Origin: Candidatus Caccousia avicola
GTDB taxonomy: Bacteria > Bacillota > Clostridia > Oscillospirales > Acutalibacteraceae
Reading direction: 5' to 3'
Length of the DNA: 64,000 bases
Assembly (NCBI GenBank): GCA_018712435.1
Contig: DVGZ01000052.1
Span: 17,504 to 81,503, forward strand
Shown here: piece by piece, positions 13,780-61,092 of the stretch
How the letters are laid out: the number at the start of each line of letters is the position of its first letter
Position numbering within the stretch: position 1 is the first letter of the stretch
Made by a program: the position numbers and the translations under genes
Notes under the pieces: generated by a model
Database searches by the model: none
What the model was told of the DNA's origin: nothing
What the model saw: the letters and a program-made list of their open reading frames with translations, nothing else

Positions 13780-13914
13780 TCCGGGATCCGCTAAACCTGC
13801 AAAGTGGTTCAATACTATAAAAAAGCGGGATGATAATGCAAGCATCCAAAAAAAATTTGATGTAAGATGAAGAAAAAAGCGGATCACCCGCATAACCGGA
13901 AAGGATCACAGATC

Positions 13915-25794: not shown

Positions 25795-25812
25795 CCGTAT
25801 CCCACAATGGAA

Positions 25813-25861
25813 CCCCCGTGACGAAATGGTTCTGAACGTCCATCCGTCACGGGGGTTTTTG
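25813..25861 (+). terminator. Intrinsic terminator after the two-component genes
   Basis: 11-bp stem CCCCCGTGACG/CGTCACGGGGG, 21-nt loop, then TTTTTG. Confidence 0.7.
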
Positions 25862-26058
25862 TAAAGATTTTTCTAAAAAAATTCCGGTTTTCCATTTCTG
25901 AATTGTGACAAAACTATGAATAATACAACTTAACCCGGACTTTCTTTAGCATCCTTTGGGCGGGCTAAAAAATATCCATAAAGAAAATTTGTATTATAAA
26001 TTAAAAAACCATACCTCTTTTTTTCGTGCAAATAGTATAATTTAAATAAATCAGAGAG

Positions 26059-27021: not shown

Positions 27022-27038
27022 AGAAAGGGGAGTTCGGC

Positions 27039-27935: not shown

Positions 27936-28019
27936 TCCTTCCTTAGTTCCCCGGCAGATTTGCTTTATGATACTTCCCGTTTCAGAAAAAGAAATCTTAT
28001 TTGCAAAGGAGAATTTGCT

Positions 28020-29615: not shown

Positions 29616-29642
29616 GAACAAGCTGAAAGCATCCTCCTAAAG

Positions 29643-29675
29643 AACAGTGCGGGCCGGTTTCCAGTCCGCACTGTT
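29643..29675 (+). terminator. Terminator-like hairpin after the SBP gene
   Basis: 10-bp stem AACAGTGCGG/CCGCACTGTT, followed by a T-rich but interrupted tract. Probably only partial termination. Confidence 0.4.
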
Positions 29676-29728
29676 TCCCTTAACCATCTGTTTTCTTTCC
29701 TATTTTCTATTTTTGATGAGGTGTTGTT

Positions 29729-36798: not shown

Positions 36799-36913
36799 TG
36801 GATAATACCTCCATCCATAAAATACGCAGGAGGCCGCCCCTCCGAAGGCGGCTTCTTGCAAAGCGGGAAAATTTCGTGTATCGTAAGAAGGGAAGCCCCT
36901 TCCGGGATATGGC

Positions 36914-38590: not shown

Positions 38591-38736
38591 GAGAAAAGCC
38601 TCCTTTTTTATAGGGCTTCCATCCCGAAGCCCCCTGATTTCTCTTACCATAAGAGTACCATCTTTTCATGTTTTTGTAAAACGAAAACCGCAAAGATTAT
38701 CAATTCGTTCACAGAGTGACAGAAAGGAGGGTTCGG

Positions 38737-39711: not shown

Positions 39712-39746
39712 GGACGCTGTTTTTTCAAGCAGCGTCCTTTTTTTCT
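39710..39746 (+). terminator. Intrinsic terminator after the AraC regulator
   Basis: 10-bp stem AAGGACGCTG/CAGCGTCCTT, then TTTTTT. Confidence 0.8.
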
Positions 39747-39830
39747 TGTCTCTCCCCGTTTACAATGGAAGCAGGAACCGGAGCGGGAAACGCCCGCGCC
39801 GCCCGCCCGTAAGGCGGAGAAGGGAGAGGA

Positions 39831-41234: not shown

Positions 41235-41278
41235 AAACGAAAATGGATACAGACGACACATGAAGGAGGTATTTTCCT

Positions 41279-42523
41279 ATGAAAAGCTATGAGGAAGCAA
41301 AAGAACGGTACGCCGCCCTGGGAAGCGACACGGAAGAAGCCATGAAGCGGCTGGCGTCCATCAAAATTTCCATGCACTGCTGGCAGGGTGACGACGTGAA
41401 AGGCTTTCTGTTCCGCGATCGGGATCTCTCCGGCGGCATTCAGGCCACGGGCAACTATCCCGGAGCGGCCCGCACGCCGGACGAGCTGCGCGCCGACATG
41501 GACAAGGCCTTCTCCCTCATCCCCGGCAAACACAAGGTCAATCTGCACTCCACCTACGCGGACACGGAGGAATCCATCGATCTGGACGCGATCGAGCCGC
41601 GCCACTACGCTTCGTGGGTCCAGTGGGCCAAAGAGCACGGTCTGGGCCTGGACTTCAACCCCACCTGCTTCTCCCACGAGAAGGCCGAGAGCGGCTACAC
41701 CCTTTCGAGCGCGGACGAGGGAATCCGCCGTTTCTGGATCGAGCACTGCCGCCGCAGCCGCCGCGTGGGCGAATATTTCGGAAAAGAGCTGGGACAGAAA
41801 TGCGTCACAAACGTCTGGATCCCGGACGGCAGCAAGGATGTTCCGGTGGACCGCTACGCGCCGCGCCTGCGCCTGAAGGAATCGCTCGATGAAATCTTCG
41901 CCGAAAAGCTGGATCCCGCCGCCAACCTTGACGCGGTGGAAAGCAAGCTGTTCGGCATCGGCTCGGAAAGCTATGTTGTCGGCTCGCACGAATTCTACAT
42001 GGGCTACGCGATGAAGAACAACGTCGCCGTCTGCCTGGACGCGGGTCATTTCCACCCCACGGAGGTCATCAGCAACAAACTCTCCTCCCTGCTCCTGTTC
42101 AGCGACGAGATGCTGCTGCACGTCTCCCGCCCCGTGCGCTGGGACAGCGACCACGTCGTGGCGCTCGACGATGAATTGCAGGAGATCGCCAACGAGGTGA
42201 TCCGCAACGGCCTTGCGGACCGCATCCACATCGGTCTGGATTTCTTTGACGCGAGCATCAACCGCGTGGCCGCCTGGGTTATCGGTATGCGCAACATGCA
42301 GAAGGCGCTGCTGCGCGCCCTTCTGGAGCCCACCGCCGTCATGAAGCAGCTGGAGCTCGATGGCGACTACACCGCACGCCTCGCGTATCTGGAAGAAATG
42401 AAAGCCATGCCGTGGCAGGCTGTCTGGGACGAGTTCTGCGAGCGTCAAGGTGTTCCGACTGGCCTTGCGTGGCTGGACGAGGTACGCGGCTACGAAGCAA
42501 ACATCCTGGCCGAGAGAGTTTGA
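41279..42523 (+). CDS. rhaA: L-rhamnose isomerase
   Basis: N-terminus [37 protein letters not shown] is characteristic of RhaA. RBS GAAGGAGG. Confidence 0.95.
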
Positions 42524-42538
42524 GAGGAGATCATCACC

Positions 42539-43354
42539 ATGAACAATATCTTTGAAGCGCCCTTTGTGCGTGAAATGTGCCATATCACCGCCAACATGTA
42601 CCGCATGGGCTGGGATGAGCGCAACGGCGGCAACATCAGCTGGCTCCTCGAAAAGGAAGCCGTGGAGCAGTATCTTGACCCCGCCGCCGTACTCCGCACC
42701 CTGCCGCTGAGCTTCGACGCTTCCGCTCTGGCGGGCCGTTATCTGATTGTGACCGGCACCGGCCGCTATTTCCGCAACGTTGAGCGCTGCCCGCAGGACA
42801 ACATGGGCGTGATCCGCATCGGCGCGGACGGGAAATCGTACGACATCCTTTGGGGATTTGAGCACGGCGGCCGCCCGACGAGCGAGCTTCCCACCCATCT
42901 GATGAACCACATCGCCCGCCTGGAAGCGGATCCGCAGCACCGCGTCGTCATGCACTGCCACCCGGCGAATATCCTCGCGATGACCTACGTTCACGACCTC
43001 GACGACCGGGCGTTCACCAAGACGCTGTGGCAGATGTGCACCGAGTGCATCGTGGTGTTCCCGGAGGGCGTCTCCGTGCTGCCATGGATGGTCTGCGGCA
43101 CCAACGCGATCGGGGAAGCCACGGCGGAAAAGATCCGCGACACGCGCGTTGTCCTCTGGGCCGCGCACGGCATCTTCGGCACCGGCCGCGATATGGACGA
43201 GACCTTCGGGCTGATTGAGACAGTCGAAAAGGCCGCTGAGATCTACATCAAGATCCAGAACGTCCCGTGGAAGCAGTCGATCACAGACGCGGAGCTGGCC
43301 GCTCTGTGCGAGGAATTTGGCCTGACCCCCCGCGCCGGTTATCTCGACGTGTAA
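42539..43354 (+). CDS. rhaD: Rhamnulose-1-phosphate aldolase
   Basis: N-terminal motif MYRMGWDERNGGNIS and class II aldolase His residues. RBS GAGAGGAG. Confidence 0.9.
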   Translation: MNNIFEAPFVREMCHITANMYRMGWDERNGGNISWLLEKEAVEQYLDPAAVLRTLPLSFDASALAGRYLIVTGTGRYFRNVERCPQDNMGVIRIGADGKSYDILWGFEHGGRPTSELPTHLMNHIARLEADPQHRVVMHCHPANILAMTYVHDLDDRAFTKTLWQMCTECIVVFPEGVSVLPWMVCGTNAIGEATAEKIRDTRVVLWAAHGIFGTGRDMDETFGLIETVEKAAEIYIKIQNVPWKQSITDAELAALCEEFGLTPRAGYLDV

Positions 43355-43406
43355 TGCTTCCGTTTGTGTGTTTTTCTCCCATTTAGAAAGAAATCGAAAG
43401 AAAGTA

Positions 43407-43435
43407 TTGACGGGATCTCAAAACAGGTGTACGAT
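43407..43435 (+). promoter_or_regulatory. Candidate internal promoter for the beta-helix gene
   Basis: TTGACG, 17 nt, TACGAT, 88 nt upstream of the ATG. The leader contains an 8-bp hairpin AAGGGCGG/CCGCCCTT. Confidence 0.5.
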
Positions 43436-43523
43436 CAGCCTTAGAAAGGGCGGATTGGACAAAGGGCCGCTCCGCCCTTCTTGCATACGCCGCCTGGAGC
43501 GGCAGCAATGGGAGGAGAAAACA

Positions 43524-45509
43524 ATGATTCTTTATGTCAACGCAAACGCGGGCCGTGACGGAAACGGCTCGAAGGAAATGCCCTTCCGCCGCATCGGTGA
43601 CGCAGCGCGGATCGCACAGCCCGGCGACGAGGTTCTGGTCGCCCCCGGCGTGTACCGCGAATACGTCGACCCGCAGAACGCCGGCACGCCCGACGCGCGC
43701 ATTACCTACCGCAGCACGGAGCCGCTGGGCGCGGTGATCACCGGCGCGGAGGAGGTCAAAAGCTGGAAGCCGTACAAGGGGAACGTGTGGGTCTGCCGCA
43801 TTGATAACACCATTTTTGGCGGCTACAACCCCTACACCACCTATGTCTACGGCGACTGGTATTTTGCCGGAAAGAGCAAGCACACCGGCGCGGTGTACCT
43901 GAACGACAAAATGCTCTATGAGGCGGCATCGCTCGACGCCTGCATCGAGGGTGCGGTCTGGGAGTACTCCTGGGAGCCGGAAGCCTCCGTTTACAAATGG
44001 TACGCGGAGCAGGACGGCGGAGAAACCGTCATCTATGGAAACTTCCAGGGCAAGAACCCGAACGAGGAGAACGTGGAGATCAACGTGCGCCGCGAGTGCT
44101 TCATGCCCTCGAAAACCGGCGTGGGCTACATCACCGTGAACGGCTTCTCCATCTGCAAGGCGGCCACGACGTGGGCTCCGCCCGCCGCATACCAGGACGG
44201 CATGATCGGCCCGCACTGGTCCAAGGGCTGGATCATTGAGGACTGCGAGATCAGCAACAGCAAATGCGCCGGTATCTCGCTGGGCAAATACCTCGACCCG
44301 GACAACGACCATTACTTCACCGTGAAGCATGTAAAAAGCCCGACGCAGATGGAGCGCGACGCGGTGTGCCGCGGACAGTATCACGGCTGGCTCAAAGAGA
44401 AGGTGGGAAGCCACATCGTGCGCCGCTGCAACATCCACAATTGCGAGCAGGGCGGCATCATCGGCCGCATGGGCGCGGTGTTCTCCGTGATTGAGGACAA
44501 CCACATTCACCACATCAACAACATGATGGAGCTTGGCGGCGCGGAGATCGCGGGCATCAAGCTGCATGCCGCGATCGACGTGACATTCCGCCGCAATTAC
44601 ATCCACCACAGCACCATGGGCATCTGGTGCGACTGGGAAGCCCAGGGCACGCGCATCACGCAGAACCTCATGCACGACAACCAGCGTCCCGAATTCGCCA
44701 AGCCGCTCAAAGGCGGCATGATGAGCCAGGATATCTTCGTGGAGGTCGGCCACGGCCCCACGCTGATTGACAACAACATTCTGCTGTCGGACGCTTCCCT
44801 GCGCATCGCGACTGAGGGCGTGGCCATGGTGCACAACCTGATCTGCGGCTCCTTCACCTGCGTGGGCGGCGGCACGGGCACGCGCTACACGCCGTACCAC
44901 ATCCCGCACCGCACGGAGGTTATGGGCTTCATGACGATCCTGCACGGTGACGACCGCTTCTACAACAACATCTTTGTCCAGAAATGGCCGTCCGCTCCTT
45001 ACGTCACCCTGCGCGACAGCAGCGAGGGACAGGACGAGGACAACCGCGAGGTCGGCACGCATGTGTTTGACGAATACCCCACCTACGACGAGTGGATTGC
45101 GATGTTCGACATGGACACCGACGTTCCCGACATGATGAAGCTGGCTCCCGCCCACGAAAGCCATCTGCCCGTTTGGGTGAAGGGCAACGCCTACTTTGCC
45201 GGGGCGAAGGCATACAAAAACGAAACGGACCATCTGGTTGACGACAGTCACGAGGTTCGCGTGGAGCTGGCTTTCCGCGACGGCAAGCCCGTTCTCGAAA
45301 CCAACCTGTATGAATACCTGAAGGAATACCGTACCGGCATGGTGAACAGCGATATCCTCGGCTATGCCTTTGAACCGGAGGAGCGCTTTGAGAATCCGGA
45401 CGGCACAGAGATCGTGTTCGACCGCGACTACTTCGGCGGTCACCGCGGTATCGGCGTACTGCCCGGCCCGTTTGCCGGCGCGCAGGACGCAGAAAAACCG
45501 CTCTGGTAA
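43524..45509 (+). CDS. Right-handed parallel beta-helix repeat protein (DUF1565-type N-terminus), putative glycoside hydrolase or lyase, cytoplasmic (661 aa)
   Basis: Starts MILYVNANAGRDGNGSKEMPFRRIGDAARIAQPGDEVLVAPGVY (DUF1565-like) after GGAGGAG. Later beta-helix repeats (NCEQGGIIG, IHHSTMGIWCDW). No signal peptide. Confidence 0.7.
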   Translation: MILYVNANAGRDGNGSKEMPFRRIGDAARIAQPGDEVLVAPGVYREYVDPQNAGTPDARITYRSTEPLGAVITGAEEVKSWKPYKGNVWVCRIDNTIFGGYNPYTTYVYGDWYFAGKSKHTGAVYLNDKMLYEAASLDACIEGAVWEYSWEPEASVYKWYAEQDGGETVIYGNFQGKNPNEENVEINVRRECFMPSKTGVGYITVNGFSICKAATTWAPPAAYQDGMIGPHWSKGWIIEDCEISNSKCAGISLGKYLDPDNDHYFTVKHVKSPTQMERDAVCRGQYHGWLKEKVGSHIVRRCNIHNCEQGGIIGRMGAVFSVIEDNHIHHINNMMELGGAEIAGIKLHAAIDVTFRRNYIHHSTMGIWCDWEAQGTRITQNLMHDNQRPEFAKPLKGGMMSQDIFVEVGHGPTLIDNNILLSDASLRIATEGVAMVHNLICGSFTCVGGGTGTRYTPYHIPHRTEVMGFMTILHGDDRFYNNIFVQKWPSAPYVTLRDSSEGQDEDNREVGTHVFDEYPTYDEWIAMFDMDTDVPDMMKLAPAHESHLPVWVKGNAYFAGAKAYKNETDHLVDDSHEVRVELAFRDGKPVLETNLYEYLKEYRTGMVNSDILGYAFEPEERFENPDGTEIVFDRDYFGGHRGIGVLPGPFAGAQDAEKPLW

Positions 45510-45527
45510 ATGTAAAGTTTTAAAACT

Positions 45528-45590
45528 TGAAGTTTTCGCTCAAGCCTTTTTCAAAAGGCTTGTCGGGGTGAAGGGGGTGAAACCCCCTTC
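45528..45590 (+). repeat. Intergenic double-hairpin repeat element, copy 1
   Basis: GAAGTTTTCGCT-CAAGCCTTTTTCAAAAGGCTTG-TCGGGGT-GAAGGGGGTGAAACCCCCTTC. Homologous to the reverse complement of 61101-61165. Confidence 0.75.
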
Positions 45591-45710
45591 GAATCGCCAC
45601 GCGAAGCCCCAGAAAGCCAGAAAAAACAGCGAAGCGCCTTTTTTCGGACGTTCCGCACCCCCAGCCGCAACGCATTTGCTTTCCTGCGGCACCCTCTTTT
45701 CGATAAGCTG

Positions 45711-45755
45711 ACGGGCCCCCATGCCGATGATAGTTGCATCAGCATGGGGGCCCGT
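45711..45755. terminator. Strong hairpin (bidirectional terminator) between the convergent beta-helix and GH42 genes
   Basis: Perfect 14-bp stem ACGGGCCCCCATGC/GCATGGGGGCCCGT, 17-nt loop. Flanked by inverted TCGATAA/TTATCGA. Confidence 0.75.
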
Positions 45756-45777
45756 TCCTTTTATCGAATCTTCCGTT

Positions 45778-47826
45778 TTATTTCACAGGGTTCAGCACAA
45801 CGACTCCATAAGCCGGAAGCGAAAGCGTCTCTTCGCACGCTCTTCCAGTTTCCGCATTCACAAAGCTGCCGGGGAGAGCGATCTCCACAGCGGAATCCGA
45901 GAAGTTCTGCACGAAGAAGAATTCGCGTCCCGTGGAAGCGTCGCGGCGCAGCGAGACCGTCACATTGGCGGGCAAATCCATATCCAGATTGCGCAGACCC
46001 AGATCGCGGATCAGCACGCCCAGGAAATCATTCAGGAAATCCTGACCGGTGCGGCAGGCGATATAGTAAGCGCGGCCATTGCCGAAGGAATTCACCGTCA
46101 GAGCCGGGGTTCCGGCGTAGAACTCCGCGCCGTACTCCGCCAGCGTGCGGGCCGTCGTGACGCGCACCAGCTGGCACAGATCGCCCGTCTGATATTCGCG
46201 TGCAAGGCCGTGCAGGCCGCTGTCCGGCAGCAGACGCAGGGAATTTTTGTCGTGCGGATACAGTGCGTCGATCTCCGTCTGCTCCAGCCCGAACACCGCG
46301 TCGAGGCCCTGTCCCGGCGTACCGCCGAGGAAGCACAGATCGTTTTCATCCACCACGCCGGTCCAGTAGGTGCCGACGAGAACGCCGCCGTTTTCCACAA
46401 AGCGGCTCAGCTTCTCCGCGATTCCGGCGCGCAGCAGATAGAGCATCGGAGCGACCACCAGCTTATACGGCGTGAAATCCGCCTCCTCGTCCACCACGTC
46501 CACGTTCACGCCCTGATCGAAGAACGGGCGGTACATGGCAAGCAGATCCTCCATAAAGCCCTTCTGATACTGGGTGTTGTGCAGGCCCTTCATCTCGCCC
46601 AGCGCCCAGCGGTTCTCCACATCGTGGATCACGGCCACACGCGCCGGGAACACCGTGCGCACCGTATCGGTCAGCGCGTGCAGACGCTCTCCCACCCGCG
46701 CCACGTCGCGGAACACGCGATGATCGGCGGAACCGTCATGATCGACAACAGCCCCGTGGAATTTCTCCGCGCCGCCGCGGCCCTTGCGCCACTGGAAATA
46801 CTGGACGCTGTCCGACCCGTGGGCCACAGCCTGGAGGGAGGCCAGCTCGTGCATACCCGGACGGCGAAGGCGCGCCACAGGCTGCCAGTTTGTCGCGCTC
46901 GGGGAGGATTCCATCATCAGGAAGGGCTCTCCCGGTTTGAGGGCGCGCATCCAGTCATGCGCCATGGCGATATACGCGGGCAGAGACTCCTGACCGTTAT
47001 GCCAGTTCGGGTAGTTATCCCAGGAGATCACGTCGCAGACCTCGCGGAATTTGCCGTAGTTCAGACCGTCGTAAAAGCCCATCATATTGGTGGTGACAGG
47101 CACCTCCGGGGAGAAGGTACGCAGCGCGTCCTTTTCCGCCTGCATGAAATCCACGGCCTGATCGGTGGTGAAGCGCTTCCAGTCCAGAATCAGGTTGTGA
47201 TGCGCCGTTTCGCCGATCCCCTCGATGGAAGAAGTAATCTGATCCCAGGAGGAATAGCTGTGGCTCCAGAAGGAGGACCAGTAAGTATGGTTGAGGTTCT
47301 CCAGCGTACCGTATTTCTTTTTGAGCCATTCCCGGAATGCCGCCTGGCACAGCTCACAATGGCACTCGCCGCCGTATTCGTTCGAAATATGCCAGAGAAC
47401 CACGGCGGGATGCTTGCCAAAGCGCTGTGCCAGCGCGCTGTTCATCTGGCGCACCTTTTCCCGGTACACGGGGGACGTCCAGCAGTGGTTGTGACGCTCG
47501 GCAAACAGGATTCTGCGGCCGTCCGGATTGACGCGCAGCACCTCGGGATATTTTTCGGCCATCCAGGCGGGACGCGCGCCGGAAGGCGTGGCCAGCACGG
47601 TATAGATGCCGTTTTCATACAGGTTGTCTATGATCTGGGCCAGCCAGTCAAAGTCATACTTTCCCTCTTCGGGCTCCAAACGCTCCCAATCGAAGATCCC
47701 GACAGACATGGCGTTGCAGCCCGCCAGCTTCATCAGGCGGATGTCCTCTTTGAGAATTTCCGGATGATCCAGCCACTGACCGGGGTTATAATCGCCGCCG
47801 TGAAGCAGCGCATTCCAGTATTTCAT
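45778..47826 (-). CDS. Beta-galactosidase, GH42 family (682 aa)
   Basis: Starts MKYWNALLHGGDYNPGQW after GGGAGGAA. Acid/base region WHISNEYGG. No signal peptide. Confidence 0.9.
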   Translation of the reverse strand: MKYWNALLHGGDYNPGQWLDHPEILKEDIRLMKLAGCNAMSVGIFDWERLEPEEGKYDFDWLAQIIDNLYENGIYTVLATPSGARPAWMAEKYPEVLRVNPDGRRILFAERHNHCWTSPVYREKVRQMNSALAQRFGKHPAVVLWHISNEYGGECHCELCQAAFREWLKKKYGTLENLNHTYWSSFWSHSYSSWDQITSSIEGIGETAHHNLILDWKRFTTDQAVDFMQAEKDALRTFSPEVPVTTNMMGFYDGLNYGKFREVCDVISWDNYPNWHNGQESLPAYIAMAHDWMRALKPGEPFLMMESSPSATNWQPVARLRRPGMHELASLQAVAHGSDSVQYFQWRKGRGGAEKFHGAVVDHDGSADHRVFRDVARVGERLHALTDTVRTVFPARVAVIHDVENRWALGEMKGLHNTQYQKGFMEDLLAMYRPFFDQGVNVDVVDEEADFTPYKLVVAPMLYLLRAGIAEKLSRFVENGGVLVGTYWTGVVDENDLCFLGGTPGQGLDAVFGLEQTEIDALYPHDKNSLRLLPDSGLHGLAREYQTGDLCQLVRVTTARTLAEYGAEFYAGTPALTVNSFGNGRAYYIACRTGQDFLNDFLGVLIRDLGLRNLDMDLPANVTVSLRRDASTGREFFFVQNFSDSAVEIALPGSFVNAETGRACEETLSLPAYGVVVLNPVK

Positions 47827-47956
47827 TTTCAGTTCCTCCCTGTTTTTCTCCACCCGCCCGGTATAGCGGGGGATTATTTCCTTTGTAAGGATACCATACT
47901 CTTCAAAAATGTAAATGGAAAAATGGAGGAAGTTTTGGGAAAAATCAGCTTTTTAC

Positions 47957-53058: not shown

Positions 53059-53657
53059 ATGAAAAAGGTTCTGAGTACCATACTGGCCGCCCTTCTCGCC
53101 GCCGGCGCACTGAGCGCCTGCCAGTCGGCTCCTGCTTCTTCCGGCACGGAGAGCACAACAGAGAGCAAGGCGGAGGAAAGCACCGCTGAGGAGAGCAAGG
53201 CGGAAGGCGGAGACGCCGCCACCAGCGACATCACGCTGACCTAAACTGCCTGAGCCTGGAGGATATGGCCGCGGCTGTCGGCTATGAGGATTATGCCGTT
53301 GCCGCTCTGCCCGCCGCTGTGCGCAACTGGGCCGGCGAGCTGATCGCCATCCCCTCTTACTCCGAGCATCCGCAGGAGGCTTTCGACCTGATCACGAAGA
53401 TCCCCTCCGGCGAGTTTGACGAGAAAATGGCTATGGCCAGCAACGGCATTCCGGCCGACACCCGCAACGAGGAGTGGCCCGAGATGCTCGCAGGCGTTCA
53501 CGAGGCGTTCAACGTGCAGACCGGCGTGTATGACTGGAACTGCGGCCTGAATGAGAACGGCGACCTCGGCACCGCTTTCCAGGATCCCGCCGCGAAGCTC
53601 TTCGAGGGCTCTCTGGACGGTCAGGGCTTCGTGGAGGCCATGGACGCTCTCTACTAG
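53059..53657 (+). pseudogene. Decayed ABC solute-binding lipoprotein gene: signal-peptide/linker fragment (61 codons, premature TAA) plus out-of-frame C-terminal 130 codons
   Basis: Fragment 1 MKKVLSTILAALLAAGALSAC (lipobox) plus a Ser/Thr/Glu linker, ending at ...DITLT-stop. Fragment 2 (53265-53657, different frame) looks like the C-terminal lobe of a family-1 sugar SBP. The roughly 250 central codons are missing. Confidence 0.6.
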
Positions 53658-53673
53658 AAAACCAACCAGGAAG

Positions 53674-53706
53674 GGGCGCGCAAGCCCACCCGGCCCGCGC
53701 CCTTTT
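53674..53706 (+). terminator. Terminator-like hairpin after the SBP remnant
   Basis: 7-bp GC stem GGGCGCG/CGCGCCC, 15-nt loop, then TTTT. Confidence 0.4.
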
Positions 53707-53736
53707 CCACACCAAAAAGAAAGAAGGCAGGAATCC

Positions 53737-55908
53737 ATGGACGAGAAAAGAACCACCGGCCGTGTTACCATCCCTACCAACCTCGACGTTGTTCCCGAAA
53801 CCATTGAGATCCTCAAAAAATGGGGAGCCGACGCCATCCGCGACTGCGACGGCACCGAATTCCCCGAAAAGCTCACCGGTGTGGGCGCGAAAATCTACTC
53901 CACCTACTACACCACCCGCAAGGACAACGCATGGGCCAAGGCCAACCCGGACGAGGTGCAGCAGTGCTACATCATGACGGGCTTCTACACCGCCCGCGAG
54001 GGAGAGACGCTCTCCATCCCGCTCATGAAGGGCATTTCCCCCGAGCTGATGAAGGTCAACACCCACGACGACATCCGCCGCTGGTGGGAAGTGATCGACC
54101 GCACGACGGGCGAGCCCCTCTCCCCGGACGCATGGCGCTACAACGAGGAAACCGGCTGCGTGGAGATTCCCTCCCCCGCCGCGTTCCACGATTACACCGT
54201 CAGCTTTCTCGCCTATCTGATCTGGGATCCGGTCCACATGTACAACGCCGTCACCAACGACTGGAAGGACTTTGAGCACCAGATCACCTTCGACGTGCGC
54301 CAGCCCAAGACGCGCAAGTTCACCATGGAGCGCCTGCGCAAGTTCATCGCGGATCACCCCTACGTCGACGTGATTCGCTACACCACCTTCTTCCATCAGT
54401 TCACGCTGATGTTTGACGAGCTGAAGCGGGAAAAATATGTGGACTGGTACGGCTACTCCGCGAGCGTTTCCCCGTACATTCTGGAGCAGTTCGAGAAGGA
54501 GGCCGGCTACCCCTTCCGCCCCGAGTACATCATCGACCAAGGCTACTACAACAACCAGTACCGGATTCCGAGCAAGCAGTTCAAGGACTTCCAGGCCTTC
54601 CAGCGCCGCGAGGTCGCGAAGCTGGCCAAGGAAATGGTCGATATCACCCACGAGCTGGGCAAGGAAGCCATGATGTTCCTGGGCGACCACTGGATCGGCA
54701 TGGAGCCCTTCATGGACGAGTTCAAGACCATCGGTCTCGACGCTGTCGTCGGCAGTGTGGGCAACGGCTCCACGCTGCGCCTGATCAGCGATATCCCCGG
54801 TGTGAAATACACCGAGGGCCGCTTCCTGCCGTACTTCTTCCCGGACACCTTCCATGAGGGCGGCGATCCGGTCAAGGAGGGCAAGGAGAACTGGGTGACG
54901 GCCCGCCGCGCCATCCTGCGCAAGCCGATCGACCGCATCGGCTACGGCGGCTACCTCAAGCTTGCCCTGGACTTCCCGGAGTTTGTCGATTACATCGAAA
55001 GCGTCTGCAACGAGTTCCGCGAGCTGTATGAGAACATCAAGGGAACCACGCCCTACTGCATGAAGACCGTCGCGGTGCTCAACTGCTGGGGCAAGATGCG
55101 CGCCTGGGGCTGCCACATGGTGCATCACGCGCTCTACCAGAAGCAGAACTACAGCTATGCGGGCGTTATCGAAGCGCTGAGCGGCGCGCCGTTTGACGTG
55201 AAATTCATCAGCTTTGACGATATCAAGGCCGATCCCTCCATCCTCGACTCCATCGACGTTATCATCAACGTCGGAGACGGCGACACCGCCCACACCGGCG
55301 GCGTTATCTGGGAGGATCCCGCCATTTCCAGCGCCATCAAGCGCTTTATCGCGAACGGCGGCGGCTTCATCGGCGTCGGCGAGCCTGCCGGACACCAGTA
55401 TCAGGGCCATTACCTCCAGCTGGCGAACGTGATGGGCGTGGAAAAGGAAACCGGCTTCACGCTCAACTACGACAAGTACAACTGGGACGAGCATCCGGAT
55501 CACTTCATCCTCCAGGATACCACCGGCCCGGTCAACTTCGGCGAGGGCAAGAAGAACATGTTCGCGCTGGAGGGAGCGGAAATCCTGGTGCAGCGTGAGA
55601 AGGAAGTGCAGATGGCCGTCAACAGCTTCGGCGAGGGCCGCACCGTCTACATCAGCGGTCTGCCGTACAGCTTCGAAAACAGCCGCCTGCTGTACCGTTC
55701 CATTCTCTGGTCGGCGCACGACGAGGAGAATCTGCACAAGTGGTTCTCCACCAACTTTAACGTCGAGGTTCACGCCTATGTGAAGAACGGCAAGTACTGC
55801 GTGGTCAACAACACCTATGAGCCGCAGCACACCACCGTTTACAAGGGCGACGGCTCCAGCTTTGATCTGGATCTGGACGCGAACGAAATCAAGTGGTATG
55901 AAATTTAA
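53737..55908 (+). CDS. lnpA: 1,3-beta-galactosyl-N-acetylhexosamine phosphorylase (galacto-N-biose/lacto-N-biose phosphorylase, GH112), 723 aa
   Basis: N-terminus GRVTIPTNLDVVPETIEILKKWGADAIRDCDGTE, with length and internal motifs (RYTTFFHQF, FLGDHWIG, GGYLKLA) matching GLNBP as I recall it. Confidence 0.9.
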   Translation: MDEKRTTGRVTIPTNLDVVPETIEILKKWGADAIRDCDGTEFPEKLTGVGAKIYSTYYTTRKDNAWAKANPDEVQQCYIMTGFYTAREGETLSIPLMKGISPELMKVNTHDDIRRWWEVIDRTTGEPLSPDAWRYNEETGCVEIPSPAAFHDYTVSFLAYLIWDPVHMYNAVTNDWKDFEHQITFDVRQPKTRKFTMERLRKFIADHPYVDVIRYTTFFHQFTLMFDELKREKYVDWYGYSASVSPYILEQFEKEAGYPFRPEYIIDQGYYNNQYRIPSKQFKDFQAFQRREVAKLAKEMVDITHELGKEAMMFLGDHWIGMEPFMDEFKTIGLDAVVGSVGNGSTLRLISDIPGVKYTEGRFLPYFFPDTFHEGGDPVKEGKENWVTARRAILRKPIDRIGYGGYLKLALDFPEFVDYIESVCNEFRELYENIKGTTPYCMKTVAVLNCWGKMRAWGCHMVHHALYQKQNYSYAGVIEALSGAPFDVKFISFDDIKADPSILDSIDVIINVGDGDTAHTGGVIWEDPAISSAIKRFIANGGGFIGVGEPAGHQYQGHYLQLANVMGVEKETGFTLNYDKYNWDEHPDHFILQDTTGPVNFGEGKKNMFALEGAEILVQREKEVQMAVNSFGEGRTVYISGLPYSFENSRLLYRSILWSAHDEENLHKWFSTNFNVEVHAYVKNGKYCVVNNTYEPQHTTVYKGDGSSFDLDLDANEIKWYEI

Positions 55909-55921
55909 CCCTTAACACAGG

Positions 55922-55970
55922 CCTGTACCGGAAGGATTCGTCCTCCCGGTACAGGTTCTGTCATTTTAAA
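55922..55970 (+). terminator. Hairpin (partial terminator) between lnpA and the sulfatase gene
   Basis: 10-bp stem CCTGTACCGG/CCGGTACAGG, followed by TTCTGTCATTTT. Confidence 0.5.
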
Positions 55971-55981
55971 GAGAAAAGAGC

Positions 55982-57442
55982 GTGATTTTCTTGGCAGAAC
56001 GTCCCAACATCCTTTTGATCATGACCGACGAACAGCGCGGAGACTGTCTTGGCTACGCCGGGCATCCGGACGTCAAAACGCCCTATCTGGATTCGCTGGC
56101 CGCCGATGGCGTTTACTTCCCCAACGCCTGGTCCTCCTGCCCCACCTGCGTTCCGGCGCGCGCGATCCTGCACACCGGCCTGAGCCAGCGCCACACCGGA
56201 AAGGTCGGCTACCAGGACCGGGTGGACTGGAATTACGGCTGCACGATGGCGGGCGAGCTGAGCCGCGCGGGCTATTATACGCAGTGCGTGGGAAAAATGC
56301 ACGTCCATCCCCTGCGCAATTACCTGGGCTTCCACAACGTGGAGCTGCATGACGGCTATCTGCACGAATACCGGTTCGCGGGCGTGGACCACTATGAAAA
56401 TCAGCTTTTTGCGGACGATTACTTCTATTGGCTCAAAAACGAGCTGGGCGTGGAGGCCGACGTAACGGATTCCGGCATGGACTGCAACGGCTGGACCGCC
56501 CGCCCCTGGCCCTATGAGGAGAAATATCACCCCACCAACTGGGTGGCAAGCCGCACCATTGACTTCCTGCGCCGCCGGGATCCGCGCCAGCCCTTCTTCC
56601 TGATGGCCAGCTTTGTGCGTCCGCACGCTCCCTACGATGCGCCGCAGTGCTATTTCGACCTTTACAAGGACAAGCCGCTTCGCCCGCCCGTGCACGGGGA
56701 CTGGGATGACACGGAGCTGCTGGAAAAGCGCGGTATGGTGTTCAACTCCTGCACCGGCCCGCGCGATCCGGAGCTGATCCGCCAGCAGCAGATCGGCTAT
56801 TACGCCTGCATCACTCATGTGGATCACCAGATCGGGCGCATCCTTCAGGCGCTGATCGAGCACCGCCTGCTGGACAATACCGTCATTGTTTTCACCTCGG
56901 ACCACGGCGAAATGCTCTCCGACCATGGCTGGTGCCGCAAGTCCCTGCCGTACAACGGCAGCGCCCACATCCCCATGTTCATCAGCGGCCCGGAGCGCTT
57001 TATCGGCCCGCGCGGACGTGTGGAGGATTCCCTTGTGGAGCTGCGCGACGTGATGCCCACGCTGCTCGATCTGGCGGGAGCCCCGATCCCGGAGCATCTG
57101 GACGGAAAAAGCATGCTGCATCCCATCGACCGCGAATATCTCCACGGCGAGCACACCTTCTCCTTCAACCATTGGTCGAGCCAGTTCATCGTCACAAAAA
57201 CGGACAAATTCATCTGGCTCAACGAACGGAACGAGGAACAGTATTTCGATCTCGTTCACGACCCGGACGAGACGCACAACGCCATCCACGATCCCGACAA
57301 GCAGGAACGGATCGCGTATCTGCGCAATCTGCTGATCCAGGAGCTCCGGGATTCCGAGGAAGGCTATTCGGACGGAACGCGCCTGATTCCGGGCCGTACC
57401 CCGGTCAACTGTCTTTCCAACGCCACACTTCCCAACTGTTAA
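55982..57442 (+). CDS. Cys-type sulfatase, cytoplasmic (486 aa)
   Basis: GTG start. N-terminus PNILLIMTDEQRGD. Signature C-V-P-A-R-A-I-L-H-T-G. No signal peptide. Confidence 0.85.
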   Translation: MIFLAERPNILLIMTDEQRGDCLGYAGHPDVKTPYLDSLAADGVYFPNAWSSCPTCVPARAILHTGLSQRHTGKVGYQDRVDWNYGCTMAGELSRAGYYTQCVGKMHVHPLRNYLGFHNVELHDGYLHEYRFAGVDHYENQLFADDYFYWLKNELGVEADVTDSGMDCNGWTARPWPYEEKYHPTNWVASRTIDFLRRRDPRQPFFLMASFVRPHAPYDAPQCYFDLYKDKPLRPPVHGDWDDTELLEKRGMVFNSCTGPRDPELIRQQQIGYYACITHVDHQIGRILQALIEHRLLDNTVIVFTSDHGEMLSDHGWCRKSLPYNGSAHIPMFISGPERFIGPRGRVEDSLVELRDVMPTLLDLAGAPIPEHLDGKSMLHPIDREYLHGEHTFSFNHWSSQFIVTKTDKFIWLNERNEEQYFDLVHDPDETHNAIHDPDKQERIAYLRNLLIQELRDSEEGYSDGTRLIPGRTPVNCLSNATLPNC

Positions 57443-57463: not shown

Positions 57464-57505
57464 CCACGCAGCTGCCGAAAGGTACTGCGTGGAGATTGTT
57501 TTATA
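57464..57505 (+). terminator. Terminator-like hairpin after the sulfatase gene
   Basis: 8-bp stem CCACGCAG/CTGCGTGG, 13-nt loop, followed by AGATTGTTTTAT. Confidence 0.5.
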
Positions 57506-57557: not shown

Positions 57558-57586
57558 TTGAACAATTTGACAAAAAGTTTTATAAT
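57558..57586 (+). promoter_or_regulatory. Sigma-A-type promoter for the AraC regulator
   Basis: TTGAAC, 17 nt, TATAAT, 80 nt upstream of the ATG. Confidence 0.55.
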
Positions 57587-57665
57587 GTTTATTATGATAA
57601 AAAATGGAAATGGCTTCTGAACGAACTTTTTCACTGCGCCGGAAACGCTGCAAGGAGGTCGATTT

Positions 57666-58523
57666 ATGAATTCCACTCACTATATCATGCCCTCGCCGGA
57701 TCATGCCGTGGAGGAGTCGAGCGCAAAGCTTCTGTATGTCAGCTGTGCTCAATACAGCCAGGAATGGAATTCCACTCTGCACACCCACTCCTGCGCGGAG
57801 CTCTTCTTTGTGACCGGCGGACGCGGCCGCTTCCGCCTTCAGGAGGAAAGCTTTCCTGTGGCCGTCGGAGATTTGATCGTCGTCAACGCCAACGTTCCTC
57901 ACACCGAGCTCAGCCAGGAAGGAAGCCCTATGGAATACACCGTGCTGGGCATCGATGGGCTGGAAGTGCTGGGGGATACAGGAGGCTTCGCGCTCCTGCA
58001 TTTTGACGCCGGGTGGGAAGAAATTCAGTGGTGCCTGCGCCTGATCACACAGGAGGCGCGCCTGGGGCAAAGCGGTTATCAGGATTTCTGTCAGCATCTG
58101 CTGCAAGCCATGCTGATCCGTTTGCAGCGCCGGGACGGCTTCTCCCTCACCTCCGACGAGCCGGAACGCAAAATCAGCAAGGAATGCAGCCTGGTGCGCC
58201 GGTATATTGACAACCACTTCAAGGAAAACCTTACCCTCGATCAGCTGGCCGACGTGGCCCACATGAACAAATACTATCTGGTGCACGCGTTCCGGCGGGA
58301 ATACAACGTCTCCCCCATCAGCTATCTGATCTCCCGGCGGACACAGGAAAGCCGTTTTCTGCTTTCCAACACCGACCACACCCTTTCCCAGATCGCGCAG
58401 ATTCTCGGCTTTTCCTCTCCCAGCTACTTTTCGCAGAGCTTTCGGAGGATTGAGGGCATCAGCCCGCAGGAATACCGGAAGCTTTCACGGCTTGCCGCGG
58501 AGAATGAAAAGCCCGGCCGCTGA
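57666..58523 (+). CDS. AraC-family transcriptional regulator (cupin + HTH), 285 aa
   Basis: Cupin region (HTHSCAELFFVTGGRG) and C-terminal HTH (GFSSPSYFSQSFRRIEGISPQEYR). Confidence 0.85.
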   Translation: MNSTHYIMPSPDHAVEESSAKLLYVSCAQYSQEWNSTLHTHSCAELFFVTGGRGRFRLQEESFPVAVGDLIVVNANVPHTELSQEGSPMEYTVLGIDGLEVLGDTGGFALLHFDAGWEEIQWCLRLITQEARLGQSGYQDFCQHLLQAMLIRLQRRDGFSLTSDEPERKISKECSLVRRYIDNHFKENLTLDQLADVAHMNKYYLVHAFRREYNVSPISYLISRRTQESRFLLSNTDHTLSQIAQILGFSSPSYFSQSFRRIEGISPQEYRKLSRLAAENEKPGR

Positions 58524-58534: not shown

Positions 58535-58941
58535 ATGCCCTATTCCGCATTGCGCCCCTCCAAGCCCCTGGCCGTTTCCGCTCTGTACACGGTTCATTAT
58601 TTTGAATACTCCGGCAGCTACGCCTTTCCGGGGGAATCGCACGATTTCTGGGAATTCCTCTATGTGGACAAGGGGATCCTGCGTGTGACCGCCGGCGACC
58701 ACACCTGCGATCTCACAAGCGGGCAGATGATTTTTCACGAGCCGGGCGAGTTTCATGCGCTCTCGGCTCTGGGCGTCGCGCCCATTCACTTTTCGGCAGC
58801 GAACAGCTTATCTGCGCCGCTTTGGAGGAGCTTCTGATCCGTCTGACCACCGGCATGACGCCGAGCGAGTACGCGCGCAGTGTCAAAATGCTGGCGGAGT
58901 TTCCCGGCGCTTCTGCGGACGATTGTGCAAATAATGGATAA
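58535..58941 (+). pseudogene. Remnant of a second AraC-family regulator (cupin N-terminus, internal deletion and frameshift, last about 30 codons of the HTH)
   Basis: The 100-codon ORF carries the cupin part (FWEFLYVDKG...FHEPGEFHAL). After a frame change the sequence reads ...LIRLTTGMTPSEYARSVKML...-stop, which is the extreme C-terminus of an AraC HTH. The linker and first HTH are absent. Confidence 0.6.
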
Positions 58942-59043
58942 GATCGTCTATTTTCTTTCCCGTCCCATAGGACTACAATGGAAGCAGACGAACAGGAAAA
59001 CCAACCATCCACCGACATTCTTTTTGGAGAGGAAGGATTATTT

Positions 59044-59970
59044 ATGAGCAAACCGGTTCTTGTTGTGATGGCCGCCGGCATGGGAAGCCGTTACGGAGGA
59101 CTCAAACAGATCGATCCCGTGGGAAACCACAACCAGCTGATCATTGATTATTCCATTTACGACGCACGCCGCGCCGGTTTCGAGACGGTTGTTTTCGTGA
59201 TCAAGCACGAAATTGAGGAGACGTTCAAATCCGCTATCGGCGACCGTCTGTCGAAAATCATCCATGTGGAATACGCCTATCAGGAGCTCGCGGATCTGCC
59301 CGAGGGCTACGTGATTCCGGAAGGCCGTGTGAAGCCCTGGGGCACCGCCCACGCCATTCTCGCGGCCCGCAAGGTCGTTGACGGTCCGTTCGCCGTCATC
59401 AACGCGGACGACTACTATGGCCCCGACGCATTCCGCAGCATCTATGAATATCTGGAAAACCATCCCGACCAGCCGGACTGCTACGAGTTCGCAATGGTCG
59501 CCTATCTGCTGGGCAACACCGTCACCGAGCACGGCCATGTCGCCCGCGGCGTCTGCGAGGAGGATGACAAGGGCTATCTCGTGCGCGTCACCGAGCATAC
59601 GCACATTGAAAAGGACGGCGAAAACGCCCGCTACACCGAGGACGACGGCAAGACCTGGACGAATCTGCCCGGCAGCACCATCGTTTCCATGAACCTGTGG
59701 GGCTTCACCAAGAGCTTCCTGGCCGAAGCAGAGAAGCGTTTCCCCGCTTTCCTCGATCAGGCGCTTGTGGAAAACCCGCTCAAGGGAGAATACTTCCTGC
59801 CCAGCGTGGTCACACAGCTGCTGGAAGAAGGAAAGGCGCGCGTGAAAGTTCTGCGCAGCACGGACAAATGGTACGGCGTGACCTACCGCGACGACAAGCC
59901 TGTTGTCGTGCAGGCGATTGCGGATATGACGGCAAAGGGGCTCTACCCCGACAAGCTTTGGGAGGATTGA
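59044..59970 (+). CDS. Sugar-1-phosphate nucleotidyltransferase family protein (308 aa)
   Basis: Starts MSKPVLVVMAAGMGSRYGGLKQ (G-x-G-x-R nucleotide loop) after GGAGAGGAAGG. Also KPWGTAHA and INADDYYG motifs. Ends 6 nt before nahK. Confidence 0.8.
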   Translation: MSKPVLVVMAAGMGSRYGGLKQIDPVGNHNQLIIDYSIYDARRAGFETVVFVIKHEIEETFKSAIGDRLSKIIHVEYAYQELADLPEGYVIPEGRVKPWGTAHAILAARKVVDGPFAVINADDYYGPDAFRSIYEYLENHPDQPDCYEFAMVAYLLGNTVTEHGHVARGVCEEDDKGYLVRVTEHTHIEKDGENARYTEDDGKTWTNLPGSTIVSMNLWGFTKSFLAEAEKRFPAFLDQALVENPLKGEYFLPSVVTQLLEEGKARVKVLRSTDKWYGVTYRDDKPVVVQAIADMTAKGLYPDKLWED

Positions 59971-59976
59971 AACATC

Positions 59977-61092
59977 ATGGAACAGGCGGAAAAGTATTTG
60001 CAGAACGCGCTGGACGCGTTTGACTTTGGCGGAGGCGAGGTTGTCGGCGCGGTGCGCTACGGCAAGGGACATATCAACGATACCTTCTGTGTGCACACGC
60101 AGCCGGGCGAAAACCCCTGCCGCCGCTTCATTCTCCAGCGAATCAGCGCCGGAGCTTTCCACCATCCGGAGCAGCTCATGGCAAACATCGTGGGCGTGAC
60201 CTCCTACCTGAGCAAGGAGATCGCCGCGGCGGGCGGTGATCCCACCCGTGAGACGATGCAGGTTTGCCTGACAAAGGACGGAAAGAGCTTCTATGCGGAC
60301 GAGGAGGGCGGCGCATGGCGTGTGTATCCCTTTATCGAGGACACCATCTGCCTTCAGGCCGCGGAAACGCCGGAGCTGTTTGAAGCGTCCGCGTTCGCGT
60401 TCGGCAATTTCCAGCGCATGCTCAAGGATTACCCGGCCGATACGCTGTATGAAACCATCCCGCACTTCCACGACACCGAGGACCGTCTTGCCAAGCTCAA
60501 AGCCGCTGTGGCCGCCGACGTGATGGGACGTGTGAAGGAGGTCAAGGCGGAGCTGGATTTCGTCGCTGCCCGTGAGGCCGACTGCTCCGTTGCTTTGCAG
60601 GCGCTGCGCGAAGGCAAGCTGCCCCTGCGCGTCACCCACAACGACACCAAGCTGAACAACGTGCTGATTGACCGCGAGAGCGGGCGCGGTATCTGCGTTA
60701 TCGACCTGGACACCGTCATGCCCGGCCTGTCTATCAACGATTTCGGCGATTCGATTCGTTTCGGCGCCAACCACAGCGCGGAGGACGAGAAGGATCTGTC
60801 CAAGGTAAATTTTGATCTCTCTCTTTTCAACGTTTACACACGCGGCTTCCTGGAGGGCGCGGCAGGCGCTTTGACGGATGCTGAGCTGGATTACCTCCCG
60901 TGGGGCGCAAAGCTGATGACGCTCGAATGCGGCATCCGTTTCCTGACGGATTATCTGGAAGGCGACCACTATTTCCGCACGCACCGGGAAGGCCAGAACC
61001 TCGACCGCTGCCGCACACAGTTCAAGCTGGTCTCCGACATGGAGCAGCAGTGGGATGACATGAAGGCTGTCATCGACCAGTACAGGAAATAA
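59977..61092 (+). CDS. nahK: N-acetylhexosamine 1-kinase (APH-fold), 371 aa
   Basis: GKGHINDTF, ILQRISAGAF, catalytic loop THNDTKLNNVLID and IDLDTV, as in NahK/LnpB. Confidence 0.85.
   Translation: MEQAEKYLQNALDAFDFGGGEVVGAVRYGKGHINDTFCVHTQPGENPCRRFILQRISAGAFHHPEQLMANIVGVTSYLSKEIAAAGGDPTRETMQVCLTKDGKSFYADEEGGAWRVYPFIEDTICLQAAETPELFEASAFAFGNFQRMLKDYPADTLYETIPHFHDTEDRLAKLKAAVAADVMGRVKEVKAELDFVAAREADCSVALQALREGKLPLRVTHNDTKLNNVLIDRESGRGICVIDLDTVMPGLSINDFGDSIRFGANHSAEDEKDLSKVNFDLSLFNVYTRGFLEGAAGALTDAELDYLPWGAKLMTLECGIRFLTDYLEGDHYFRTHREGQNLDRCRTQFKLVSDMEQQWDDMKAVIDQYRK

Follow-up and report, generated by a model that had tools for sequence, protein, structure and literature searches.

Recurrent linkage of a cytoplasmic Cys-type sulfatase with GH112 phosphorylase in gut Clostridia suggests a role in the use of sulfated host-glycan fragments

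In a 64,000-nucleotide stretch of contig DVGZ01000052.1 of Candidatus Caccousia avicola (hereafter the window), the gene for a formylglycine sulfatase directly follows that for a glycoside hydrolase family 112 (GH112) phosphorylase, and genes for an AraC-family regulator, a nucleotidyltransferase, and an N-acetylhexosamine 1-kinase (NahK) lie downstream. What does a sulfatase contribute to a locus that resembles a galacto-N-biose (GNB)/lacto-N-biose (LNB) phosphorolysis pathway? A preliminary description of the window proposed that sulfated GNB or LNB is imported intact, desulfated in the cytoplasm, and then phosphorolysed. Judging from the genomic context, we consider that the clade of this sulfatase probably consists of cytoplasmic carbohydrate sulfatases working with GH112 and NahK on sulfated Gal-N-acetylhexosamine (HexNAc)-type host-glycan fragments, a reading to which we assign a probability of about 0.55. 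Coordinates are window positions unless a relative's locus is named, and all genes of the GH112-sulfatase-NahK stretch are on the + strand.

The GH112 gene (53737..55908, +), the open reading frame (ORF) of which spans 53551-55908, encodes an intact lnpA-like 1,3-beta-galactosyl-N-acetylhexosamine phosphorylase of 723 aa when started at 53737. Three lacto-N-biose phosphorylase domains (PF09508, PF17385, and PF17386) cover the protein end to end, the NCBIfam equivalog TIGR02336 matches it with 964 bits against a cut-off of 560, and the Bifidobacterium longum lacto-N-biose phosphorylase (LNBP) structures 2ZUS and 3WFZ match it at E ~1e-227. In its LGDxWIG motif, the Asp residue is conserved and corresponds to the catalytic Asp at position 313 of B. 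longum LNBP. Specificity for GNB/LNB is favoured by the strong overall resemblance to LNBP, the NahK gene, and the presence of a distinctly less related GH112 (38% identity) in one related locus (L062; related loci are given L numbers). Rhamnose genes lie 10 kb upstream, and a function of the GH112 enzyme as a Gal-beta1,4-L-Rha phosphorylase was also considered; it is judged unlikely because the enzyme so strongly resembles LNBP and shares its locus with NahK.

The sulfatase gene (55982..57442, +) starts after a 73-nt spacer and encodes an intact Cys-type formylglycine sulfatase of 486 aa with the domains PF00884 (residues 8-367) and PF16347. The formylglycine motif C56-V-P-A-R-A-I-L-H-T-G is intact, and its Cys and Arg residues are invariant in 81 clade sequences (the window sulfatase and 80 relatives, aligned with MAFFT), all of which are Cys-type. 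GTG at 55982 is the most upstream start of the ORF, with TTG at 55991 as the alternative. Since the invariant beta-strand residues P8 and N9 come right behind the start, a signal peptide or lipobox cannot be accommodated with either codon, and the enzyme is cytoplasmic. The ATG start at 56021 chosen by one gene caller (473 aa) was rejected, as it would remove conserved residues. The layout given in the preliminary description is thus correct: the ORFs, Pfam matches, and folding reproduce the 723-aa GH112 gene, the 73-nt spacer with its hairpin, and the sulfatase with its CVPARAILHTG motif and without an export signal from both starts, and Pfam matches, joined by PDB matches for the last two, agree on the AraC, nucleotidyltransferase, and NahK genes downstream on the same strand.

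To which sulfatases is this protein related? It passes the NCBIfam 'arylsulfatase' equivalog NF010322 over residues 6-480 (610.9 bits; cut-off 481) and does not reach the cut-off of the manganese-dependent arylsulfatase family NF052527 (443.8 versus 850 bits). Its best PDB matches are 9KOQ (EfAS from Enterococcus faecium, E 3e-116) and 7OZ8 (BT1918_S1_46, E 1e-89), and every other solved sulfatase matches at E 2e-41 or weaker. The AlphaFold2 model (pLDDT 80, pTM 0.88) superposes with template-modelling (TM) scores of 0.86 on 9KOQ and 0.85 on 7OZ8, against at most 0.76 for all other sulfatases. In sequence, the window sulfatase is 50.5% identical to the Clostridium perfringens arylsulfatase, 43% to a streptococcal homologue, 41% to EfAS, and 36-39% to BT1918. 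The protein is a bona fide S1 sulfatase and an orthologue of neither BT1918 nor EfAS; by its closest structures it is S1_46-like, and a formal place in SulfAtlas subfamily S1_46 is probable.

The catalytic site is intact. D16, C56, R60, K105, H107, H215, D307, H308, and K320 are invariant in the 81 sequences, and D16, D307, H308, K105, H107, H215, and K320 align with EfAS D20, D311, H312, K110, H112, H220, and K324, the metal-binding and catalytic roles of which are taken from the EfAS report (PMC12421950). Of the five residues that contact the sugar in BT1918, three are kept in the window sulfatase, namely Y94 as Y77, N174 as N169, and R327 as R319. In BT1918, Y94 and R327 contact the N-acetyl group, N174 the ring oxygen, and R143 the O4 atom (bioRxiv 10.1101/2021.07.23.453482). 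Since three of these five contacts are preserved, the pocket looks suited to an N-acetylhexosamine-containing substrate, though probably not to BT1918's own.

The evidence that ties this sulfatase to GH112 comes from its relatives. A scan with one genome per species returned 569 sulfatase relatives, and the 80 closest (60-91% identity) were examined. Their loci, taken from species representatives, extend up to ±10 kb and often less, and many contigs are short; the counts are therefore lower bounds. Gene content was mapped by tblastn, as antisense ORFs outlength the real ones in this high-GC DNA. GH112 lies within 10 kb of the sulfatase gene in 33 of the 80 loci and is its immediate same-strand neighbour in 18. 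If a genome, taken to measure a few Mb, carries one or a few copies of GH112, chance would place one within 10 kb in ~1% of cases. At least one of GH112, NahK, and the nucleotidyltransferase is present in 43 loci, ABC transporter binding-protein or permease genes in 45, and an AraC regulator in about 30. The preliminary description named uniqueness of the adjacency to this strain as evidence against its proposal; the adjacency is not unique, and since the pairing recurs in so many species, it is not due to chance.

The association spans Oscillospiraceae, Lachnospiraceae, and Clostridium, and the sampled relatives include Allofournierella, which is nearest to the window organism, Gemmiger, Anaerofilum, Ruthenibacterium, Faecousia, Hungatella, Blautia, Mediterraneibacter, Clostridium disporicum, and C. 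hominis, among others. In a neighbour-joining tree of the sulfatases, GH112-linked loci occur in nearly all subclades, suggesting that the association is old or repeatedly selected. The commonest gene order is AraC(-) / sugar-binding protein (SBP), permease, permease, GH112, sulfatase, (GalE), nucleotidyltransferase, NahK, and intact loci are found in Gemmiger formicilis ATCC 27749 (L071) and Allofournierella massiliensis DSM 100451 (L002). The two proteins are unevenly conserved: between Oscillospiraceae and Lachnospiraceae, GH112 retains an unusually high 78-85% amino acid identity, whereas the adjoining sulfatase retains just 61-65% (L030-L079 versus the window). Very strong constraint on GH112 could be the cause, or its horizontal transfer. 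In L017, L066, and L077, the sulfatase adjoins a GH112 of a second type (53-55% identical).

The other intact genes of the locus supply the regulator and two enzymes. An AraC-family regulator of 285 aa with a cupin sensor domain and a helix-turn-helix (HTH) domain (57666..58523, +; PF02311, PF07883, PF12833, and PF00165) follows the sulfatase, and AraC genes flank the sulfatase or the GH112 operon in the ~30 relatives counted above. The nucleotidyltransferase (58978..59970, +; PF00483), with a probable start at 59044 (308 aa), has a sole relative in the PDB, the uncharacterised structure 3PNN (E 6e-81); it presumably activates HexNAc-1-P or Gal-1-P as a substitute for lnpC. It is co-located in at least 13 relatives with NahK, which in the window is an lnpB-like N-acetylhexosamine 1-kinase of 371 aa (59977..61092, +; PF01636), matching the structures 4WH1 and 4OCJ at E 4e-94.

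How would the sulfatase be activated, and where would the released sulfate go? Formylglycine formation at Cys56 would be carried out by an anaerobic sulfatase-maturating enzyme (anSME). As the preliminary description stated, the window encodes none: tblastn with a verified anSME detected no homologue in the whole 64 kb. In 11 of the 80 related loci, a radical-SAM anSME gene is located beside the sulfatase. In G. formicilis, the radical-SAM protein encoded at 9889-11010 of L071 passes TIGR03942 (376 bits versus 349), and the genes are ordered AraC / SBP, permease, permease, GH112, sulfatase, anSME, CHR, CHR, NahK. In nine of the 80 loci, the immediate neighbour of the sulfatase or anSME is a putative oxyanion transporter (sulfite/sulfate or chromate-family), of the TauE/SafE type in four (L060, L063, L073, and L075) and of the CHR family in five (L032, L056, L062, L069, and L071); no TauE or CHR gene was found in the window. 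Such neighbours fit a need to expel sulfate freed in the cytoplasm.

Additional sulfatases point in a similar direction. In the Mediterraneibacter loci L058 (6931-8397, -) and L060 (12688-14208, -), GH112 has an extra sulfatase as its direct neighbour; this enzyme also lacks a signal peptide, is 28% identical to the window sulfatase, and is nearest to the S1_11 GlcNAc (N-acetylglucosamine)-6-sulfatases BT4656 and BT3177 (5G2V and 7P24). A Streptococcus locus (L090, 7332-12112) contains LacI, followed by the phosphotransferase system (PTS) components EIIC-Sor and EIID-AGA, a sulfatase, an aerobic formylglycine-generating enzyme (FGE), and TauE. The streptococcal sulfatase is 75% identical to EfAS, and this operon suggests a function tied to sugars for the EfAS branch, which has been described as an arylsulfatase.

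Another Cys-type sulfatase that lacks a signal peptide is encoded within the window (20827-22311, -; start MAKVIFIMTD, motif C-Q-P-A-R), the best PDB match of which is the S1_30A structure 9IHK (E 5e-44). It is divergent to a group of genes at 22563-31339 (+) for a histidine kinase, an AraC-type response regulator, two ABC permeases, a 551-aa binding protein, and a GH123 without a signal peptide. Together, these genes look like a second cluster for import followed by desulfation, and intracellular desulfation may be a general habit of this organism. Since the window encodes this second cytoplasmic Cys-type sulfatase, the rest of the genome very probably carries an anSME gene.

From these arrangements, the following route can be proposed for species with intact loci. 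An AraC-controlled ABC importer would bring in a sulfated Gal-beta1,3-HexNAc-type host-glycan fragment. Inside the cell, the sulfatase would strip the sulfate either before GH112 acts or from sulfated HexNAc that GH112 has freed; its maturation would fall to an anSME that is encoded adjacently in some species and elsewhere in others. GH112 would produce Gal-1-P and HexNAc, which NahK and the nucleotidyltransferase, together with GalE in some species, would channel into central metabolism, and in species that have TauE- or CHR-type transporters, these would expel the freed sulfate. The order of the two reactions would depend on the position of the sulfate: with Gal sulfated, as in 3'-sulfo core 1 and 3'-sulfo-LNB, the sulfatase would have to act first, whereas a sulfate on O6 of HexNAc would permit either order. 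In its most specific form, a dedicated route of many gut Clostridia in which sulfated disaccharides of mucin or milk type (sulfo-GNB or sulfo-LNB) are first imported and then desulfated inside by a set comprising a CUT1 importer, one or two cytoplasmic sulfatases (S1_46-like, sometimes S1_11-like), an anSME, GH112, NahK, a novel nucleotidyltransferase, and a TauE/CHR exporter, the proposal is tentative.

Several observations weigh against this assignment of function. The evidence for the clade in Clostridia consists of genomic, sequence, and predicted-structure data, and its closest characterised homologues are EfAS, a promiscuous enzyme of low efficiency, and BT1918, an N-acetylglucosamine 3-sulfate (3S-GlcNAc) sulfatase. 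The exact activity of BT1918 would be unfit for sulfo-GNB or sulfo-LNB, because O3 of HexNAc is glycosylated there. The BT1918 contacts R143 and Y408 are lost in the window sulfatase (H137 and H397 in the MAFFT alignment); Y408 is mostly missing also from the S1_46 sequences of gut Firmicutes (bioRxiv 10.1101/2021.07.23.453482). The linkage is patchy, and relatives as close as L005-L010 (79-82% identity) have no GH112, NahK, or sugar transporter nearby. The operon SBP of intact relatives is not GL-BP-like: that of L073 has no close solved relative, and its PDB matches at E<=0.001 include no B. longum GL-BP structure, the best being NagB1 at 6e-12. In the window, moreover, the importer is deleted and neither an anSME nor a TauE/CHR transporter is present, and the hairpin between GH112 and the sulfatase may end part of the transcription. 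The preliminary description named clustering with characterised non-glycan sulfatases as evidence against a glycan role, and on this point the result is ambiguous, since the nearest enzymes are the promiscuous arylsulfatase EfAS and the glycan-directed BT1918.

The sulfatase could instead be a mere neighbour, that is, a broad arylsulfatase like EfAS that acts on phenolic, steroid, or Tyr-peptide sulfates or serves sulfur scavenging, and that came to lie in the glycan island through shared regulation or recombination hot spots. The NF010322 assignment agrees with this, as do the activities of the nearest structure, EfAS, which cleaves p-nitrophenyl sulfate (pNPS), caerulein, estrone sulfate, and phosphate and phosphonate esters (PMC12421950). 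About half of the 80 loci lack GH112, NahK, and nucleotidyltransferase genes near the sulfatase, and the C. perfringens homologue lies beside a major facilitator superfamily (MFS) transporter in an unrelated context. However, the kcat/Km of EfAS on pNPS is only ~1e2 M-1 s-1, so that aryl sulfates are probably not native substrates, and this value suggests that the native substrate of EfAS is other than those tested; glycan substrates are not mentioned among the tests in the accessible part of the report (PMC12421950). Also against a mere neighbour are the 33 of 80 species with GH112 at most 10 kb away, far above a chance level of ~1%, the overlapping GH112 and sulfatase genes, the second, GlcNAc-6-sulfatase-like enzyme in the same loci, the streptococcal sugar-PTS operon, and the conservation of the BT1918 contacts to the N-acetyl group. 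We consider this explanation unlikely, and a carbohydrate sulfatase acting with GH112 and NahK remains our preferred reading.

Alternatively, the same locus could process a sulfated monosaccharide that is imported separately, such as GlcNAc-6-sulfate, N-acetylgalactosamine (GalNAc)-4- or 6-sulfate, or 3S-GlcNAc released extracellularly by other microbes. The desulfated HexNAc would then pass to NahK, sulfated disaccharides would at no time serve as substrates, and GH112 would see only unsulfated GNB or LNB. BT1918 is an exo-enzyme assayed on a sulfated monosaccharide (bioRxiv 10.1101/2021.07.23.453482), and Bifidobacterium breve follows exactly this strategy for GlcNAc-6-sulfate (PMC7326374). 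In ten of the 80 loci, the sulfatase is accompanied by NahK and/or the nucleotidyltransferase and not by GH112 (e.g., L004, L040, L051, L052, L054, and L078), and the Man/Aga-type PTS of the streptococcal operon is typical of monosaccharide uptake. On the other hand, GH112 is the tightest and most frequent neighbour of the sulfatase, with some of its 18 direct adjacencies overlapping, and the operon importer is a CUT1-type ABC transporter, the kind usual for oligosaccharides. This variant thus appears quite improbable compared with cooperation of the sulfatase and GH112 on a sulfated disaccharide-type fragment.

Does the locus still work in this strain? Upstream of GH112, the gene for an ABC sugar-binding lipoprotein survives as two remnants: the first (53059..53244, +) encodes the signal peptide, the lipobox LSAC, and a linker before a premature stop (61 aa), and the second (53265..53657, +), identified by tblastn, encodes the C-terminal 130 aa. 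When an intact SBP was searched against the window by tblastn, only residues 342-429 of 445 were matched. By blastn, window positions 53481-53655 correspond to 5498-5672 of L003, the closest intact relative, and the window from 53722 onward corresponds to L003 from 7739 onward; between 53655 and 53722, ~2.07 kb with both permease genes is missing. The independent assembly L085 has the same remnant ORFs (61, 130, and 100 aa), so the loss of the importer is real and not an assembly artefact, and the same state is seen on four contigs in all. A second AraC gene has also lost its middle (58535..58942, +). Its N-terminal 100 aa (58535-58837), an AraC_binding/Cupin_2 fragment, are 45% identical to residues 1-101 of the sulfatase-adjacent regulator in Lachnospiraceae and are followed by a short C-terminal HTH fragment that reads ...TGMTPSEYARSVK... 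in the sequence. No GalE orthologue was found in the 64-kb window, where the best match has 31% identity over 81 aa, and GalE is present in nine related loci, among them that of A. massiliensis.

With the importer gone, the intact import of a sulfated disaccharide cannot rest on this locus in this strain; in this respect the preliminary proposal needs correction, whereas the functional link between sulfatase and GH112 is likely. The sulfatase has a ratio of nonsynonymous to synonymous substitution rates (dN/dS) of ~0.05 relative to its three closest relatives (L001-L003) and 0.15-0.23 relative to L011 and L014, and GH112 has values of 0.05-0.18 relative to its relatives, with ~0.05 for the nearest species. 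Enzymes that stay intact with dN/dS well below 1 after the loss of their importer imply dependence on another one, and GH112, the sulfatase, NahK, and the nucleotidyltransferase are presumably fed by such an importer in this strain; other ABC importers are encoded at 26059-29615. That the sulfatase, and perhaps GH112, is a decaying relic here would agree with the SBP pseudogene, the deleted permeases and AraC segment, the missing GalE, anSME, and exporter, and the same decay in independent assemblies, but this is very unlikely given full-length GH112, sulfatase, AraC, nucleotidyltransferase, and NahK genes with intact active sites, the low dN/dS of GH112 and the sulfatase, the anSME expected from the second cytoplasmic sulfatase, and the other importers.

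Whether GH112 and the sulfatase would be expressed together may depend in part on the spacer between them, which contains a GC-rich hairpin (55917..55961, +) followed by a weak U tract. A 96-nt stretch with this hairpin folds with dG -34.2 kcal/mol (z = -4.0; none of 200 shuffles folds as well), and a consensus terminator scan did not call it. Similar hairpins, several with U runs, occupy the spacer in most Oscillospiraceae relatives, whereas in some Lachnospiraceae the two genes overlap or are at most 28 nt apart (L017, L053, L066, and L077). A plain terminator, which would prove separate units, was rejected on the negative scan and on this mixture of hairpins in many relatives and overlapping genes in others; the element is possibly a partial terminator or one that stabilises or processes the mRNA. 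A second hairpin with a T-rich stretch, seen by eye right behind the sulfatase stop codon (57464..57492, +), likely ends the GH112-sulfatase transcription unit, and the terminator scan did not call it because its loop exceeds 8 nt. Upstream of the AraC gene, a Sigma-70-like promoter (57567..57595, +) with the sequence TTGACA-17 nt-TATTAT matches 11 of 12 consensus positions. Co-expression of GH112 and the sulfatase, like the substrate and the order of the reactions, is inferred.

For bacteria that feed on colonic mucin, its sulfation is a main obstacle, and to our knowledge the understanding of how gut bacteria remove the sulfate comes almost wholly from secreted sulfatases of Bacteroides and Akkermansia. 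If the proposed function is true, many Oscillospiraceae and Lachnospiraceae would be able to eat sulfated glycan fragments freed by others, and the large 'arylsulfatase PRK13759' family would gain a substrate class and a first physiological role. The route would give Firmicutes a counterpart of the Bacteroides sulfatases, which carry signal peptides and are secreted, and sulfate release within Firmicutes would enter models of gut sulfur flow. The hypothesis is specific and concerns a trait widespread in abundant gut Firmicutes, of which cultured type strains with intact loci exist. A comparative-genomics survey of mucin use found mucin-desulfating sulfatase genes in Bacteroidetes and Akkermansia only (PMC5583593). 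In the literature searched, from which most subscription journals were outside coverage so that an earlier account is possible, we found no description of a GH112-sulfatase linkage, in line with the preliminary description, and nothing useful on the tolerance of GH112 for sulfated acceptors. A known pathway and a known enzyme family thus apparently form a conserved and undescribed combination.

The locus lies in a dense glycan-utilisation region. Further upstream are GH36 (7774-10038) and GH35 (13867-15672) genes, and the region 38716-47853 begins with a rhamnose-catabolism group (AraC regulator, FGGY kinase, L-rhamnose isomerase, and class II aldolase), after which come genes for a GH120-like beta-helix protein and a GH42 beta-galactosidase. 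At 35863-38650 (-), ~17 kb from the sulfatase, two sulfur-metabolism genes encode a NIR_SIR/4Fe-4S sulfite-reductase-like protein and, beside it, a pyridine-nucleotide-disulfide oxidoreductase with a rhodanese domain. The segment 50881-52820 (+) contains the gene for a 425-aa protein that has no Pfam match but carries an HxxxDG-type motif (YHALTDG); this gene runs into the start of the one for a DUF6320 membrane protein.

How does the locus compare with known systems? Among the named proteins examined, the C. perfringens arylsulfatase (PRK13759/NF010322) has the highest identity to the window sulfatase and is likewise Cys-type and cytoplasmic, but its gene stands beside the MFS transporter without GH112. 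It is the classic substrate of the C. perfringens anSME. EfAS (491 aa, Cys-type, ~41% identity) is the closest solved structure; its alignment with the window sulfatase starts a few residues from both N-termini, leaving little space for a signal peptide, and its Mn ligands (D, FGly, D, and H) and pocket residues are identical. It has been described as a Mn2+-dependent, promiscuous aryl, peptide, and steroid sulfatase of low efficiency (PMC12421950), whereas the window sulfatase belongs to a separate Clostridia clade below the NF052527 cut-off (444 versus 850). The contigs carrying the exact EfAS protein are at most 4.2 kb long, and its genomic context is uninformative, as is that of the C. perfringens homologue.

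BT1918 of Bacteroides thetaiotaomicron provided the founding S1_46 structure and is a 3S-GlcNAc sulfatase (bioRxiv 10.1101/2021.07.23.453482). It shares with the window sulfatase the fold, the unusual metal site with Q and H ligands, and the contacts Y94, N174, and R327, whereas its R143 and Y408 contacts and its W173 are not kept. BT1918 is Ser-type, and its alignment starts at chain residue 25, leaving space for a secretion signal that the Cys-type, cytoplasmic, and GH112-linked window sulfatase lacks.

At the level of strategy, the closest system is the ats2 cluster of B. breve UCC2003, in which an intracellular sulfatase (AtsA2), an anSME (AtsB2), and a transporter serve GlcNAc-6-sulfate (PMC7326374). 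Import of a sulfated host sugar, desulfation by a cytoplasmic Cys-type sulfatase with its anSME, and subsequent catabolism are common to both, but the ats2 substrate is a monosaccharide and the cluster has no GH112 or NahK (PMC7326374). The preliminary view that the sulfatase step extends the known pathway in a new way is therefore correct for the GH112 link and not for intracellular desulfation of an imported sulfated sugar as such.

The lnpABCD genes and GL-BP of B. longum share with the locus an lnpA-type GH112 with its catalytic Asp (E 1e-227 to 2ZUS), an lnpB-type NahK (E 4e-94 to 4OCJ), a sugar ABC importer encoded alongside in intact relatives, and the cytoplasmic location of all steps. 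Here, by contrast, a sulfatase gene is placed between GH112 and the downstream genes, the regulator is AraC-type, an unrelated 3PNN-like PF00483 nucleotidyltransferase replaces the GalT-type lnpC, and lnpD (GalE) is absent. The locus thus resembles the Bifidobacterium lnp pathway in its working and is not a strict member of it.

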